The notes under the pieces were generated by a model. The model had not been told where the DNA came from. It did not search any database and saw only the letters and a list, made by a program, of their open reading frames with translations. The position numbers and the translations under genes are program-made. This document shows positions 6,696 through 10,711 of a stretch of DNA of 64,000 nt, in pieces. Origin of the DNA: a phage; sequence record PZ386947.1; one strand, 5' to 3'. How positions within the stretch are numbered: the stretch's first letter is position 1; each line of letters begins with the position of its first letter.

Positions 6696-8378
6696 TTAAA
6701 CCATTACAGTAAATCGACCAACTTTCTTCATTTGAAGATGCTGACCATATTCTTGCGGGTCATGGTCTTTATGTGAAATTATAAAAACATTAGTGTTTTT
6801 CATTGAATTTATAATATTAGCTACACCTTTAATACCTTCGGCATCAAATGACCCATCAAACACTTCATCGAGTATTAATGTACTAATACTAACACCAGAT
6901 ACAATAGAAGCAATATCACGCCAAGTAAATAAAAGAGCAATATCAATTCGTGCTTTTTCACCTTCACTAAATGAAGCATAACTAAAATCTTCACGACCAC
7001 GGGATTTAATTGTCTCATTAAATTCTTCATCTAATGTAAACACATAATCCGCTTCCATTATTTTAAGATAATGGTTAATCTGCTTATTAAATAATGGAAT
7101 GTACTTTTTAATAATAGCACCTTTAATACCAGAATCTTTGAGCATATCAGTCAAAATTCCTCGGTGGTATTTTTCCATTACTAAATTAGTTTTTGTCTTA
7201 ACAATTTTATCAAGTTCTTCTTGAAGCAGTGCTATTTCATCAGCATGGTCAATAAACTCAGAAGATGCTTTTTCTATAGCCGCTTTAACTTTTTTGGCTT
7301 TATCTACCGTCGTGATTAGAGATTGCTTTTTATTGCGAATATCATTTGCCAACGACTGTTGGGTTTTAATATTATCTCGGTATTCATCAACAAGAACTTT
7401 TAAATTATCACGATGTGTTGAAAGCTGTTCAAACGAATGCGTACATTCAGAAACTTTATCTTTAATTTTAGAAACAACTTTATCACCGGAACTCAATTGT
7501 GACAAACAGGTTGGACATAATCCACCTTCGTGATACATATTAATGACTTTATTATACGAGTCAATTTTTGATTTAATTAAAACTGCTTCTTGACCGATTT
7601 TATTAAATGCATCAGTCGGGTCTTCATCCAAAACAATATTAACTAATCTTTCGTTAGCTTCTTCTATTTCCGATTTTAGCGTTCTAGCTTCTTTTGCCAA
7701 ATCATCATACATATTTTGCAGACGAGTAAGGTTGTCACCCGTTAATTTTTTCTGGCGTTCAACGTTATCATTATATATTTTAATTTGTTGGATAATACTA
7801 TCTTTTTTAACATCAAGCACTTGGTTCTGCGAATTTAATTCACGTATTAGTGCTTTATTAAGCTTATCCATTTCAGCTAATGTTCCTACCTCAAGCAGGT
7901 CTTCCACAAGCTTTCTTCGCGCAGGGGTCGACAAACCCATGAAAGGGGTATACCCTGCTGTACCAAGGACAACAATCTGCTTGAAACTGGCATATGACAT
8001 TCCGATAAGCTGTTCAAATTCTGCTTGGAAATCTTTACTGCTGGCAGATTCATTAAGACGTGTACCGTTAACGGTGATTTCGAAAACGTTTGGTTTTTGT
8101 CCTCTTTTGATATAGTACTTTTTCTCATCATATTCCATCCACAGTTCAACTAAAAGTTCTTTCTTATTTGTGCTGTTTATTAATTGACCTTTCTTTACAT
8201 CACGAAATGGTTTGCCAAAAAGCCCAAATGTGATGGCTTCTAACATAGTAGACTTACCACCGCCATTTCGGCCAGTAATAAGAGTTTTTTGAACCTTATC
8301 TAATTGAATGTCAACTCCATTTTGACCAACTGACATTATATTTTTATATTTTACTCTATTAAGTTTAAATGATTTCAT
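6696..8378 (-). CDS. 46: recombination endonuclease subunit gp46 (SbcC/Rad50-like ATPase)
   Basis: 560 aa; N-terminal Walker A GRNGGGKST, long coiled-coil middle with CPTC zinc hook, C-terminal signature/Walker B LILDEVFDGSFD. Confidence 0.95.
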   Translation of the reverse strand: MKSFKLNRVKYKNIMSVGQNGVDIQLDKVQKTLITGRNGGGKSTMLEAITFGLFGKPFRDVKKGQLINSTNKKELLVELWMEYDEKKYYIKRGQKPNVFEITVNGTRLNESASSKDFQAEFEQLIGMSYASFKQIVVLGTAGYTPFMGLSTPARRKLVEDLLEVGTLAEMDKLNKALIRELNSQNQVLDVKKDSIIQQIKIYNDNVERQKKLTGDNLTRLQNMYDDLAKEARTLKSEIEEANERLVNIVLDEDPTDAFNKIGQEAVLIKSKIDSYNKVINMYHEGGLCPTCLSQLSSGDKVVSKIKDKVSECTHSFEQLSTHRDNLKVLVDEYRDNIKTQQSLANDIRNKKQSLITTVDKAKKVKAAIEKASSEFIDHADEIALLQEELDKIVKTKTNLVMEKYHRGILTDMLKDSGIKGAIIKKYIPLFNKQINHYLKIMEADYVFTLDEEFNETIKSRGREDFSYASFSEGEKARIDIALLFTWRDIASIVSGVSISTLILDEVFDGSFDAEGIKGVANIINSMKNTNVFIISHKDHDPQEYGQHLQMKKVGRFTVMV

Positions 8379-8393
8379 TTTGTATCCAATTGT

Positions 8394-9248
8394 TCACAAT
8401 GAAGAAAATTCTTTAACTAAAGCCTGTAATGAAGCCTCTATTGGATATCCATTCTTAACTAACATTTTCCTAAACATTACATGTTTAGGACGATTATATG
8501 ATATCCACAATTCATACAATTTATCTTTATTATCCCAATGATAGCCTTTTCGTCGAGATGCTATATGAGCTTTTCTAATCTCCGGATTTTTCCAACTAGC
8601 AGCTACTGAATTTGATATAGCTATTTTATATTCAGGTTTTGATAAAGCAGCACGAACAGCCTTTTGGTGTTTAATTTTATTTTCTTCGTTATTAAACCAT
8701 TCCCTTGAAGCCATTGAAATTTTTTGTTTTGTTTTAAAATTATTTAATCTTTCTTTATTATCTTTCCTATTTTTTGCTACTGAAAAATATTTTAATGCCC
8801 TTTCTCTAGCAGCATTTCTATTTTGCGGATTTGAATAATACTGTTGAAGCCTTTTTGATATTGTGTCACTTACATCTTGTTTTATAAAACTATATTCAGC
8901 AGCTATTAAATCAACTTCGGCTAAAGATAAATTTTTATATGTTTTTCCTGACATCATTCTATTTAAAGCATTTAGCATTTTTCCATTTTTACCTTTTGCT
9001 AATAAGAAGTGTGCTTTAAAATGATTAAAATGACTTAAATTAACTAAATTCCATGTAGATTTTAAATATTCAGGAAATATTGATTTAGGAAGCACGTGGT
9101 GTGCTTCCGTTTTACCTGGAGTTTTAACAGTTGAATTCACAGAAATAAAATTAATGTAAGACTTGGCGTCTTCTTCACTCAACGCTAATTTTTCAACTAA
9201 TTCCTTTATTAAAAATTCATCATTAATGTCAAGTTTAAAATTCTTCAC
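8394..9248 (-). CDS. HNH homing endonuclease with NUMOD-like repeats
   Basis: 284 aa; HNH core EAHHVLPKS...NLVNLSHFNHFKAHFLLAK; C-terminal basic repeats; paralogous to the ORF at 29124..29903. GTG start overlapping upstream stop (GTGA). Confidence 0.85.
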   Translation of the reverse strand: MKNFKLDINDEFLIKELVEKLALSEEDAKSYINFISVNSTVKTPGKTEAHHVLPKSIFPEYLKSTWNLVNLSHFNHFKAHFLLAKGKNGKMLNALNRMMSGKTYKNLSLAEVDLIAAEYSFIKQDVSDTISKRLQQYYSNPQNRNAARERALKYFSVAKNRKDNKERLNNFKTKQKISMASREWFNNEENKIKHQKAVRAALSKPEYKIAISNSVAASWKNPEIRKAHIASRRKGYHWDNKDKLYELWISYNRPKHVMFRKMLVKNGYPIEASLQALVKEFSSL

Positions 9249-9460
9249 AAAAGATTCCTTTTAATGTATCTTTTAGACCATTCTATCATATCATCATAAT
9301 CTAAAAAGTATTCATCAAATTCAGCCATGCAAACAACGCCTTGTGCTGCTTTTGATGTGATATAAATTATTCCAACATATCTAGAATCTTCTTCGGTGTA
9401 ATCAATATTTGCTATGAATTCATCATTAATGTCAAATGTCGAAAACTTCACAGTATGCAT
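9245..9460 (-). CDS. hypothetical protein (46.1-like)
   Basis: ORF track 9245..9508; likely start MHTVKFSTFDINDEF. N-terminus shares an 18 bp DNA repeat with the HNH gene start. Confidence 0.45.
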   Translation of the reverse strand: MHTVKFSTFDINDEFIANIDYTEEDSRYVGIIYITSKAAQGVVCMAEFDEYFLDYDDMIEWSKRYIKRNLL

Positions 9461-9695
9461 CCTTAATACAAGATACAGCCATATCTCGTAATGATTTAGG
9501 TGTGTCATTATCTAAAATGTTGAAGTTAAAAGATACAGCCCAGTCAGTGCAGACTGTAACCTTTTTAATACAATTATCTTCAACCTCTAGCGGTTCAAAC
9601 CAATATTCAATAATTTCTTTATGACCAATATCATCTTTTACTTCGCATTCAAAATGCTGACTCATCATAACATTTTTAAATTCATCAAAAGTCAT
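9432..9695 (-). CDS. hypothetical protein (46.2-like)
   Basis: 87 aa ORF directly upstream of gene 47 in the same array; stop overlaps gene 47 start. Confidence 0.5.
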   Translation of the reverse strand: MTFDEFKNVMMSQHFECEVKDDIGHKEIIEYWFEPLEVEDNCIKKVTVCTDWAVSFNFNILDNDTPKSLRDMAVSCIKDAYCEVFDI

Positions 9696-10711
9696 TGTGT
9701 TGCCTCTACATATAGCTGATTCGCATATTGAATAAGTGCTTCACGGTCAGAATCAGTGATGTCTGGAATTGCATTAATGTATTCTTCCATCAACGTCTGA
9801 AGAGATTGAACTTCAACTTCTTCACTTTCATCTGACTCGACAGAGTTATCAATTTTTGACACAACTCGTAATGAATGCACAACTTTTTCTAGTTCAGATT
9901 CGAACTTCGTCAGATTTTTGTCTACCTCAGTTACTATAACACGTACTGATAGATTTGTAAAATCTTTATAGTCAATTTTTCCTTTAAATGGATAATGAAT
10001 TCTACGATGCCAGGTAGTATTGTTTGGAATAAATTCCATTCGTTCTGTTTCTGTATCAAACATCCAGAACCCACGAGGGTCATTCTCGTCACCTGCAGTT
10101 AGTGTCCATGGTGTCCCAATATATCTGACGTTAGCAGCCTCAGAGATAGTATGGAAGTGACCAGACCACACCTCTTTATAAGTCTTAAGGAAATCAGGTT
10201 CAAGACCGTGAGATTTCATTCCTTTATAAAAATAAAATCCATTCAGCTCCCAGTGACCAACACAAAAAGAAGCAGATGAAGTTTTGATGTGTTCAAGAAT
10301 TTCACCAGTATTTTCTTCACACATCCAAGGAATTAAATCAATCAAACATCCGTCAAAATCTACTGTAGTAGGCTTATCATACACTTTAACATTAGGATAT
10401 TTAGCCAAAAGCTCAGTAGAGGCATTTGGAGTTAAAGTATTTTTAAAGTGCATATCATGGTTTCCTACAACAGTATGTAGGGTAATACCAGCATCATCAA
10501 GCATTTGAACTATTTCACGAGCGAACTCCATAGTTTTATGTGTGATTGCTTTTCGCACATCAAAAATATCACCATATTGAATCCATACAGTAATTCCATT
10601 TTTCTTAGAATATTCTATCGCTTGCTTAATTCCATCAATTTGAATACCGCGAATCCACTCATCATCGGCTTTAACGCCTAAATGCCAATCACCTAAATTT
10701 AAAATTTTCAT
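9692..10711 (-). CDS. 47: recombination endonuclease subunit gp47 (Mre11/SbcD-like phosphoesterase)
   Basis: 339 aa; phosphoesterase motifs LGDWHLG, GDIFD, GNHD, GHWE/GHFH. Confidence 0.95.
   Translation of the reverse strand: MKILNLGDWHLGVKADDEWIRGIQIDGIKQAIEYSKKNGITVWIQYGDIFDVRKAITHKTMEFAREIVQMLDDAGITLHTVVGNHDMHFKNTLTPNASTELLAKYPNVKVYDKPTTVDFDGCLIDLIPWMCEENTGEILEHIKTSSASFCVGHWELNGFYFYKGMKSHGLEPDFLKTYKEVWSGHFHTISEAANVRYIGTPWTLTAGDENDPRGFWMFDTETERMEFIPNNTTWHRRIHYPFKGKIDYKDFTNLSVRVIVTEVDKNLTKFESELEKVVHSLRVVSKIDNSVESDESEEVEVQSLQTLMEEYINAIPDITDSDREALIQYANQLYVEATQ

Follow-up and report, generated by a model that had tools for sequence, protein, structure and literature searches.

How does a homing endonuclease gene come to lie at the edge of an essential recombination gene, and what has its arrival done to the neighboring genes? 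The question is raised by a 64-kb stretch of DNA (the window), whose source was identified as the T4 relative Shigella phage CM8 (100% match). An original prediction, made from the DNA sequence alone, had described a 284-aa HNH-NUMOD endonuclease gene occupying the interval between recombination genes 46 and 47, and had read a direct repeat at its 5′ end as the footprint of capture by duplication of the start of a resident gene. In T4, 46.1 and 46.2 are the sole genes between 47 and 46, as had been stated, 46.1 directly overlaps gene 46, and the HNH gene is absent. The sequence of the window bears out the 284-aa ORF and its GTG start, which overlaps the upstream stop codon as GTGA. The small ORF upstream of it is T4 gene 46.1 (Pfam DUF5487, E = 2e-49); an 87-aa, ATG-start version of 46.1 given by a mechanical ORF list was rejected in favor of the start annotated in both CM8 and T4. 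The features of the locus are collected in Table 1.

Table 1. Features of the gene 46 locus in the window, with positions numbered from the first nucleotide of the window.
Feature	Position	Strand	Sequence	Description
Gene 46	6696-8378	minus		Host of the insertion; Rad50/SbcC-like recombination nuclease subunit, 560 aa, own ATG
HNH-linked tract	8315-8361	minus		Gene 46 nt 18-64, codons 6-22; about 14 differences from the majority HNH-free allele
Replacement gene 46 5′ end	8361-8378	minus	ATGAAATCATTTAAACTT	MKSFKL; supplied by the cassette
Spacer	8379-8393	minus	ACAATTGGATACAAA	15 nt, from the HNH stop (TGA 8394-8396) to the gene 46 ATG; part of the cassette
HNH ORF	8394-9248	minus		284 aa, GTG 9248-9246, intact; in the ORF list and in CM8 RefSeq ("homing endonuclease")
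Hairpin	9088-9108	minus	GGAAGCAC-ACCAC-GUGCUUCC	In the HNH mRNA, over the EAHHVLP codons
Leader part 2	9214-9232	minus	TTGACATTAATGATGAATT	Copy of 46.1 nt 17-35 (codons 7-12, DINDEF)
Leader part 1	9231-9248	minus	GTGAAGAATTTTAAACTT	Original GTG and codons 1-6 (MKNFKL) of T4-type gene 46
Gene 46.1	9245-9451	minus		Resident; DUF5487, 68 aa, GTG start at 9451; same annotation in T4 and CM8
AAGGA ribosome site	9256-9260	minus	AAGGA	Inside the 46.1 3′ end; formerly used by gene 46, now by the HNH ORF

Our literature search found no paper on this specific HNH gene; Petrov et al. 2010 count one "other HNH" each in T2 and T6 (PMC2993671). By tblastn the protein matched mobC (36% identity, E = 1e-21), mobD (30%, E = 2e-11), and a MobE-like protein (36%, E = 2e-7, over residues 31-120), and its PHROG matches were 655 "homing endonuclease" (E = 7.8e-45) and 12434 "HNH endonuclease" (E = 4e-15). 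MobC and MobD, its closest sequence paralogs, align over 73-83% of the window protein and share with it the invariant core EAHHVLPKSIFPE...WN.VNLS...H..AH; they differ in lying at other loci, and neither has the MKNFKL-DINDEF leader. In an alignment with four Mob-like homologs (25-35% identity), H50, H51, N67, N70, H76, and H80 are invariant, and a beta-beta-alpha element is predicted over residues 47-84 with a pLDDT of 85-92. Searches of the curated collections returned neither a Pfam HNH or NUMOD match (E up to 10) nor a match in NCBIfam, and none in a PDB sequence search started from the single sequence or from a Mob-like profile. Evidently the curated HNH models do not reach as far as the divergent Mob family. 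Three MobC-like relatives do match I-HmuI_NUMOD-like (8e-5) and NUMOD1 (4e-3), domains in which the MobC-like proteins end, whereas the window protein matches none of the NUMOD1, NUMOD3, NUMOD4, and I-HmuI NUMOD-like models. The family was assigned solely through phage homologs and PHROGs. Of the predicted HNH-NUMOD label, the first half is supported by the Mob homology and the conserved His/Asn motif, and the second half, matched by no model, is not confirmed. The 284-aa ORF is a homing endonuclease gene of the Mob HNH family, intact and free-standing, with predicted nuclease activity; it is of the type anticipated and is missing from T4. An Rfam scan of positions 8000-10000 (E up to 1) returned two weak matches to snoRNA models only, far below their gathering scores; there is no self-splicing intron around the HNH ORF, and gene 46 is whole without splicing.

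The gene does not merely occupy the interval between 46 and 47, as had been supposed, but lies inside gene 46. Alignment with T4 places an 870-nt cassette between codons 6 and 7 of this essential recombination gene, and the insert has the same length of 870 nt in CM8, T6, and SHFML-26. The first 18 nt of the HNH leader are identical to the T4 gene 46 start (18/18), and the 46.1 sequence upstream of them is identical and continuous, as in the T4 empty site. In the 446 HNH-free records the alignment ends exactly at ...AAACTT or ...AAACT. From there, leader nt 17-35 match 46.1 (9417-9435) at all 19 positions and at an equal offset from the start codon, and this second part is absent in the closest HNH homologs, those of SEA1 and F2. 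The leader is a chimera of two resident gene starts, those of 46 and 46.1, and the native nuclease body begins after about residue 12. At the other end, the 15-nt spacer, which is missing from T4 and identical in T2, T6, SHFML-26, and RB51, carries a weak GGA ribosome site 6 nt ahead of the gene 46 ATG. Behind it stands the replacement start of gene 46, to be compared with GTGAAGAAT in HNH-free Tequatroviruses and with ATGAAATCA in the Mosigvirus-type start (RB69, p000v). The cassette is flanked by a direct repeat, TTTAAACTT, at 9231-9239 and 8361-8369, and this repeat is the gene 46 5′ end. Since the HNH ORF keeps the AAGGA site of gene 46 and the GTGA overlap, its translation should be coupled to that of 46.1; and since the end of the cassette supplies a weak ribosome site, an ATG, and six codons, gene 46 stays whole. 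Codons 1-14 of gene 46 are conserved at the protein level across five genera.

The repeat shared with 46.1 proved real, and more extensive than had been predicted. On the minus strand TTGACATTAATGATGAATT occurs as an exact 19-nt match at 9214-9232 and 9417-9435 and, at 78% identity, spans 45 nt (9205-9249 and 9408-9452); the 17-mer originally reported, 1-2 nt out of place, lies at 9216-9232 and 9419-9435. No further match with up to two mismatches was found in the 64-kb window. Matches with up to three mismatches averaged 0.18 over 100 shuffles, none of which reached the observed number of three; from composition, the probability of an in-register 19-nt run is about 6e-10, and among 2,000,000 random in-register pairs of 45-mers taken from the window the longest run was 16. 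The 19-nt repeat is not due to chance. The CTTCAC that had been pointed out about 10 nt beyond each copy corresponds on the opposite strand to GTGAAG, which is the start and Lys codon of both ORFs; the two have it in common because the starts of 46.1 and 46 are already alike in T4, at 12 of 18 positions. The supported direction of transfer is from 46.1 to the HNH gene, since the same 46.1 sequence occurs in about 440 phages without that gene and the segment is missing from its closest homologs. The idea of the repeat as a promoter was dropped, as the TTGACA within it is without an acceptable -10 element, and a scan of promoters and terminators showed no enrichment of promoter-like sites (18 found versus 15.7 expected). 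The HNH mRNA contains a hairpin of -15.6 kcal/mol (z = -4.65), and none of 200 shuffled sequences folded as well; it is a putative element that could possibly act as an internal attenuator.

The relatives were searched for alleles with and without the insert, as the original prediction had proposed, and both exist. The prediction had named the presence of the gene in every close relative, T4 included, as evidence against it; since T4 is without the gene, it stands on this point. Of about 518 Tequatrovirus records, 72 carry the cassette (among them T2, T6, and RB51) and about 446 are without it. Its left junction is one and the same in all 72 carriers, and the flanks are 97-100% identical between records with and without it. 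HNH homologs of about 44% identity lie immediately upstream of gene 46 in Gelderlandvirus (5/16 records) and Mosigvirus (10/162), so that the gene is patchy in every genus (14% in Tequatrovirus, 6% in Mosigvirus, 31% in Gelderlandvirus). Decayed copies are found in T2, where the insert of 868 nt is frameshifted and annotated as two ORFs, in RB51 (869 nt, frameshifted), and in RB68, where a frameshift truncates the product at 208 aa. Searching a large protein database returned only six clusters, among which that of the identical 284-aa protein has 85 member sequences; variants with an intermediate N-terminus were not returned. Two further arrangements bear on the leader. In F2 and AV113 the opening 22 nt of the HNH ORF (MTKTDYE) are those of the RB69/p000v 46.1, and the remainder of 46.1 is gone; we take this as a precedent for the fusion of a nuclease to the 46.1 start. 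STML-198 is without 46.1, and the GTG of its gene 46 overlaps the stop codon of gene 47 at the place where S16 has the 46.1 GTG, an apparent precedent for the joining of the 46 and 46.1 starts. Short, weak similarities seen by eye in the CM8 spacer, and at the C-terminal ends of the nucleases in SEA1 and F2, were considered as relics of the 46.1 3′ end; we make no claim for them.

The HNH-positive alleles also differ from the majority HNH-free allele within gene 46 itself, at nt 1-9 and 18-64. All six HNH-positive alleles examined, from three genera, have in common K/S12, AAT ATA ATG, GTT17, and CAA19, and the HNH-free alleles have Q12 with G19 or A19. SEA1, Melville, F2, and AV113 carry the same gene 46 patch as the Tequatrovirus carriers, and beyond about nt 60 each HNH-positive gene 46 is 97-100% identical to that of its own genus. 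We infer that nt 18-64 are a co-conversion tract. In the 700 nt of left flank there was no HNH-linked SNP and no sign of co-conversion. Even at synonymous sites the tract hardly differs between genera whose HNH proteins are only about 44% identical; simple co-descent of gene and tract does not account for this, and either recent exchange of the tract or a constraint on its DNA sequence is needed. The tract also occurs without the HNH gene, in T4 and about 68 records, with the naive form in about 357. This polymorphism suggests that gene 46 codons ~12-20 are likely the target and immunity region.

Taken together, these observations are best explained by a Mob-family HNH cassette seated in gene 46, spread by homing, and equipped with a chimeric leader, a reading we hold with good though not complete confidence. 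During co-infection the enzyme would nick or cut an HNH-free gene 46 within its first ~60 nt, by analogy with MobE, SegF, and SegG, and probably at codons ~12-20. Repair of the break from the HNH-positive genome would copy the cassette together with 45-60 nt of gene 46, and the copied tract would make the new allele resistant. How the leader arose is less certain. In an ancestor, the first ~12 codons of 46.1 may have been joined to the nuclease gene, with the rest of 46.1 replaced, a state that phage F2 still shows with its own 46.1. A microhomology join of the 46 start, GTGAAGAATTTTAAACTT, and the 46.1 start, GTGAAGTTTTCGACATTT, may then have restored a complete 46.1 upstream and produced the chimeric leader. 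The intermediate that this history predicts (46.2, 46.1 codons 1-12 fused to HNH, and 46, with no full 46.1) was found in none of the 72 Tequatrovirus carriers; its expected junction, the 46.1 start joined to the nuclease without the gene 46 leader, would read GTGAAGTTTTCGACATTTGACATTAATGATGAATTTTTAATAAAGG. The T4 allele could be the source of the HNH-positive one; it is most simply a loss allele, which a deletion between the two copies of TTTAAACTT would have generated.

The capture originally proposed, a single duplication of the 46.1 5′ end with the whole leader from GTGAAG to DINDEF as one copy of 46.1, would account for the 45-nt repeat at 78% identity, its exact 19-nt core, and the GTGAAG at an equal offset. 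It holds for leader nt 17-35 and fails for nt 1-18, which are the displaced gene 46 start: these match 46.1 at only 12 of 18 positions and T4 gene 46 at all 18, they follow on from the end of 46.1 precisely as they do at the T4 empty site, and the shared GTGAAG follows from the likeness of the two starts in T4. It also leaves unexplained the replacement gene 46 start and the flanking repeat, the duplication that does flank the cassette and that comes from gene 46, and it is contradicted by the alignment of T4 and CM8; we consider it very unlikely. Capture by duplication is thus too simple an account of a chimeric leader with a gene 46 duplication around it, and either the two-step history or a short-patch conversion fits better. 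In the latter case, anatomy and mobility would be the same, and the 19-nt segment would have been copied after insertion from 46.1, which lies 203 nt upstream, by ectopic conversion or template switching; it would have landed on a native N-terminus of weak similarity. At the position of NDEFLIKEL in the window protein, MobC-like proteins have CDFVNDKL, so that D-x-F could be native and the 19-nt identity could reflect short ectopic conversion and not a relic fusion; comparison of D-F-V-x-x-K-L in MobC-like proteins and D-x-E-T in SEA1 and F2 with D-E-F-L-I-K-E-L here indicates that a weakly similar native segment probably existed. The proximity of the two copies in the same register and the missing intermediate speak for this account as well. 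It is unusual, however, for so weak a similarity to seed a conversion tract as short as 19 nt, and F2 and AV113 are cases in which this nuclease lineage did become joined to the 46.1 start while the body of 46.1 was lost; we judge short-patch conversion unlikely.

That DINDEF and its DNA were native to the nuclease and passed to 46.1, or arose by chance or by convergence on a protein motif, has nothing in its favor beyond the repeat itself. T4 and the other HNH-free phages, ~440 in all, have an identical 46.1 5′ sequence; distant homologs of 46.1 retain H-E-F or H-D-F at the aligned position, and TH55 encodes LDDEF by different DNA. With the segment absent from the closest HNH homologs and the chance probability given above, we attach almost no credence to this explanation. 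Another alternative concerns not the origin of the gene but its persistence: the nuclease might no longer be selfish, or not primarily so, and might be retained because it benefits the phage, as it would if it kept out rival T-even phages in co-infection. Its integrity in most carriers (the 85-member cluster) and the presence of the lineage at the same locus in three genera would agree with this, as would the known role of homing endonucleases as agents of marker exclusion between T2 and T4 (PMC2993671). The patchy occurrence in every genus and the decay in T2, RB51, and RB68 are instead those of the usual selfish life cycle, and a primarily beneficial role seems unlikely to us; since exclusion and homing are two views of one cleavage event, it would be compatible with the cassette spreading by homing.

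A bolder reading joins these observations across genera. One Mob-like lineage would have tracked the gene 46 5′ end through at least three genera of Tevenvirinae, each time rebuilding its start from resident ones (46.1 in Mosigvirus; 46 and 46.1 in Tequatrovirus), with a short, nearly identical immunity tract far better conserved than the nuclease, and the T4 allele would be a fossil that lost the element by deletion at the 9-nt repeat and kept the resistant tract. We offer this only tentatively, as a possibility more open to doubt than the homing cassette itself.

Among known systems, a close one is MobE of T4, an HNH endonuclease of the Mob family whose free-standing gene lies between nrdA and nrdB (Wilson & Edgell 2009, PMC2790892). 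It is promoterless, depends on upstream transcription, and has a functional internal hairpin terminator (PMC2790892); its start codon and the stop of the preceding gene overlap, which suggests that the two are translationally coupled (PMC2988022), and both its nick and its recombination point map to the 5′ part of the gene that follows (PMC2790892). The window gene resembles it in being a free-standing Mob-type HNH gene just upstream of a conserved essential-pathway gene, with a start/stop overlap, a hairpin inside the coding region, no promoter enrichment, and a tract, at gene 46 nt 18-64, where MobE has its nick region. Unlike MobE, which is intergenic, the window cassette lies within the downstream coding sequence, has taken its start and ribosome site, and supplies a substitute, and its leader is built from two resident genes. 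SegF and SegG of T4, of the GIY-YIG family, show intronless homing and localized marker exclusion of T2 (PMC2988022, PMC2993671). They share with the window gene a free-standing position beside a conserved gene and, as presumed for the window gene, both the cutting of alleles that lack the endonuclease and the co-conversion of neighboring polymorphisms; they differ in nuclease family, and the window tract begins at the insertion point. SegF and SegG cleave about 200-330 bp from the insertion. In Aeromonas phage Aeh1, mobE lies inside nrdA ("genes in pieces"), which is split into two polypeptides that must reassemble. The likeness to Aeh1 lies in a Mob-type gene seated in coding sequence with no intron or intein; unlike there, six gene 46 codons are displaced and resupplied, and gp46 remains a single full-length protein. 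The HNH cassette, unusual in its chimeric leader, is an uncharacterized element of a kind already known and not a new kind of system.

The anatomy leads to a testable prediction: the target should lie in gene 46 codons ~12-20 of RB7/sb3-type phages, and T4-type and HNH-positive alleles should be resistant. It shows how a selfish gene can be seated in an essential gene without an intron or intein, by taking its start and ribosome site and giving replacements, and its junctions record illegitimate, microhomology-level joins of neighboring gene starts. It also implies that part of T4 gene 46 is imported, endonuclease-linked DNA, which bears on the mosaicism of the T-even phages and on the partial exclusion among T2, T4, and T6. 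If T4 does carry the fossil allele, the locus would be a natural record of invasion, fixation, decay, loss, and resistance in the best-known phage, in which a selfish gene took the translation signals of an essential gene and repaid them with a substitute.

The window is from Shigella phage CM8, to which a 2-kb query around the finding gave a 100% match; the same query matched 555 T4-like phage records and was covered in full in 72 only. The local genes all lie on the minus strand, in the order a-gt, 47.1, 47, 46.2, 46.1, a 284-aa ORF (the HNH ORF), 46, 45.2, rpbA, and 45. The sequence and ORF list bear out the original prediction as to the length of this ORF, its GTG start, and its GTGA overlap with the upstream stop. 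T4 lacks an endonuclease gene here, as had been supposed: its gene order is that of CM8, but 46.1 overlaps gene 46 directly and the 284-aa ORF is absent.

Features of the gene 46 region in the CM8 window
Feature	Coordinates	Strand	Remarks
Gene 47	9692-10711	minus	
46.2	9432-9695	minus	
46.1	9245-9451	minus	DUF5487 (E 2e-49); true start GTG at 9451
HNH ORF	8394-9248	minus	284 aa; GTG start
Gene 46	6696-8378	minus	
Gene 46 codons 1-3	8370-8378		
Exact direct repeat TTGACATTAATGATGAATT	9214-9232; 9417-9435		
Cassette-flanking repeat TTTAAACTT	9231-9239; 8361-8369		
Hairpin in HNH mRNA	9088-9108	minus	GGAAGCAC-ACCAC-GUGCUUCC

Alignment of CM8 with T4 showed that the gene, originally placed between 46 and 47, lies inside gene 46. 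T4 gene 46 begins GTG AAG AAT TTT AAA CTT / AAT AGA GTA (MKNFKL/NRV), with the GTG overlapping the 46.1 stop. In CM8, those 18 nt of T4-type gene 46, still joined to 46.1, form codons 1-6 of the HNH ORF, and gene 46 begins ATG AAA TCA TTT AAA CTT / AAT AGA GTA after a 15-nt spacer with a weak GGA ribosome site. An 870-nt cassette therefore sits between gene 46 codons 6 and 7, flanked by a direct repeat. The HNH ORF has taken over the native AAGGA ribosome site and GTG of gene 46, together with its putative coupling to 46.1, and the 3′ end of the cassette provides a new start for gene 46. Codons 1-14 of gp46 are true coding sequence, because their protein sequence is conserved across five genera; annotations of gene 46 from Met15, 42 nt downstream of the GTG overlapping 46.1, are thus probably wrong in sb3, RB7, fPS-90, and AugustSocin (loci L018, L019, L020, and L022).

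By homology, the HNH ORF product is probably a Mob-family HNH endonuclease, with nuclease activity to be expected. Using tblastn, we found the same protein at >97% identity at this locus in T2, T6, RB51, PP01, and others, and more distant relatives annotated as mobC (36%, E 1e-21), mobD (30%, E 2e-11), and MobE-like. The ORF matches PHROG 655 “homing endonuclease” (E 7.8e-45) and PHROG 12434 “HNH endonuclease” (E 4e-15), the residues EAHHVLPKSIFPE...WN.VNLS...H..AH are invariant in an alignment with Mob-like homologs (25-35% identity), and an AF2 model has a strand-strand-helix at residues 47-84 (pLDDT 85-92). Among curated models, there was no Pfam HNH or NUMOD, NCBIfam, or PDB sequence match. 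Of the earlier label “HNH-NUMOD,” the first half is supported by the Mob proteins and PHROGs, but the second is unconfirmed, NUMOD-type domains occurring in MobC-like relatives only. A strong hairpin in the HNH mRNA (-15.6 kcal/mol, z = -4.65) lies exactly over the catalytic EAHHVLP codons; by eye, it was not seen in the SEA1 and F2 homologs.

Within Tequatrovirus, the insertion is polymorphic, as T-even alleles with and without it had been expected to show: the left junction is common to all 72 carriers, and in 446 records the alignment reaches ...AAACT(T) only. Frameshifted copies occur in T2 (868 nt, annotated as two ORFs), RB51 (869 nt), and RB68, and no intron is involved at the HNH ORF. 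Homologs of ~44% identity occupy the same locus, directly upstream of gene 46, in Gelderlandvirus (SEA1 and Melville; 5/16 records) and Mosigvirus (F2 and AV113; 10/162); RB69, S16, and STML-198 have no endonuclease homolog there. F2 also carries a second “homing endonuclease” directly after gene 46 on the opposite strand (L004, 4976-5692), and an “HNH endonuclease” in Yersinia phage fPS-90 (L020, 1-212) overlaps the gene 47 start; endonuclease genes seem to have a hot spot in the 46/47 region. In Enterobacteria phage Ac3 (L014, OK040907), the upstream sequence is 100% identical to RB51, and from the exact HNH start codon (GTG to GTT) nearly every third codon position differs, through the HNH gene into gene 46 (locus position ~1653 to at least 3321). 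This segment, with a GC of ~0.46 versus 0.28 and codons shifted to CTG, ATC, and AAC, looks codon-recoded (synthetic?) or like a very odd mosaic. In T6 (L013, 754-1017), RefSeq labels the 46.2 homolog “hemolysin XhlA,” probably an annotation artefact, since the window's equivalent matches only the Pfam family T4_Y03C.

The direct repeat noted earlier at the starts of the HNH ORF and 46.1 is real, the 17-mer coordinates first given being off by 1-2 nt. The exact 19-nt match lies within a 45-nt repeat of 78% identity, and both copies end at GTGAAG (start codon plus Lys), which seems part of the repeat because the resident starts of 46 and 46.1 are already 12/18 identical. The match is not due to chance: shuffled controls gave a mean of 0.18 matches even with 3 mismatches allowed, the in-register 19-nt run has P ~6e-10 from composition, and the longest run was 16 in 2 million in-register pairs of 45-mers drawn at random from the window. 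The leader, that is the first nucleotides of the HNH ORF, is in fact chimeric; duplication of a resident 5′ end, as proposed, holds for nt 17-35, copied from 46.1 (19/19), but nt 1-18 are those of gene 46 (18/18).

The 46.1-like segment derives from 46.1: it is missing from the closest HNH homologs, tblastn alignments to them starting at residue 16-24, and the 5′ end of 46.1 is identical in HNH-free phages, T4 among them. At the corresponding position, HEF or HDF is found in distant 46.1 homologs, and LDDEF, encoded by different DNA, in that of TH55. The most economical history would be a fusion of 46.1 (codons 1-12) to the HNH gene, followed by a microhomology join between the gene 46 and 46.1 starts that would put a complete 46.1 back upstream. 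F2 and AV113 have the architecture expected of the precursor: their nuclease ORF opens with the first 22 nt (MTKTDYE) of Mosigvirus 46.1, and identity to RB69/p000v spans 46.2 and ends after those 22 nt, the remaining 46.1 being replaced. The Gelderlandvirus STML-198 (L011, 880-900) lacks both 46.1 and the endonuclease gene, and the GTG of its gene 46 overlaps the stop of gene 47 precisely at the site of the 46.1-homolog GTG in S16 (L010, 890-1100), where the homolog is full-length. This is a clean deletion between two similar gene starts, so the 46 and 46.1 starts do recombine. Of the S16 homolog, RefSeq annotates just a short stretch at the 3′ end. In a live alternative, ectopic conversion copied a short stretch of 46.1 onto a native nuclease N-terminus with weak similarity to it; MobC-like proteins have such an N-terminus, CDFVNDKL, at the leader position, and no Tequatrovirus intermediate for the two-step history was found among the 72 carriers.

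HNH-free Tequatrovirus genomes form two classes by the 5′ end of gene 46. Class B (~357 records; RB7, sb3, and fPS-90) reads CTA AAC CGA GTT AGG TAT CAA ... GTA GGT GGA AAT CCT from codon 6 (...RYQNIMSVGGNP), like HNH-free alleles of other genera. In class A (~68 records; T4 and PYPS2T), nt 18-62 of gene 46 are identical to HNH-positive alleles (...KYKNIMSVGQNG). Past ~nt 76 of gene 46, polymorphisms are independent of HNH status, and the 700-nt left flank holds no HNH-linked site. In SEA1, Melville, F2, and AV113, gene 46 has the same patch over its first ~60 nt (K/S12, AAT ATA ATG, GTT17, CAA19) and thereafter again matches S16 or RB69/p000v at 97-100%. Such a pattern is what co-conversion beside a cleavage site would look like; the inferred target would lie within codons ~6-22 of naive gene 46, where codons 12 and 19 discriminate consistently. 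The T4 allele, native nt 1-9 plus the linked tract, is the expected product of deletion between both TTTAAACTT copies in an HNH-positive genome and may be a loss allele, a direction that the comparison suggests rather than proves. Synonymous sites in the tract hardly differ between genera that share just ~44% identity in their nucleases, which requires recent tract exchange or DNA-sequence constraint. In each genus, the first codons of HNH-positive gene 46 are typical of another genus (window, L003, L004, L006, L011, and L025): codons 1-3 are ATG AAA TCA in Tequatrovirus, the HNH-free Mosigvirus form, and GTG AAA ACA in Mosigvirus, the form of STML-198. This hints that the cassette moved between genera with very short flanks.

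Several records already call the gene a (mob-like) homing endonuclease, and it probably corresponds to the “other HNH” that Petrov et al. 2010 counted in T2 and T6; we found no study devoted to it. Seg and Mob genes are promoterless, with starts overlapping the upstream stop (PMC2988022), and MobE has a recombination point and nick in the 5′ region of downstream nrdB (PMC2790892), paralleled here by the linked tract at the gene 46 5′ end. Like T4 MobE and the intronless-homing Seg/Mob genes, the element would have its target in an adjacent conserved gene, with flank co-conversion. Unlike them, it lies within the coding sequence of its host gene, has exchanged translation signals with it, and has a leader put together from two resident genes; unlike the Aeh1 nrdA/mobE “genes in pieces,” gp46 is unsplit. 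The hairpin is reminiscent of the terminator hairpin within mobE, although only a weak U-tract follows it. The HNH gene is a Mob-like free-standing homing endonuclease gene, of a known kind, and the junction structure of its cassette is unusual and informative.
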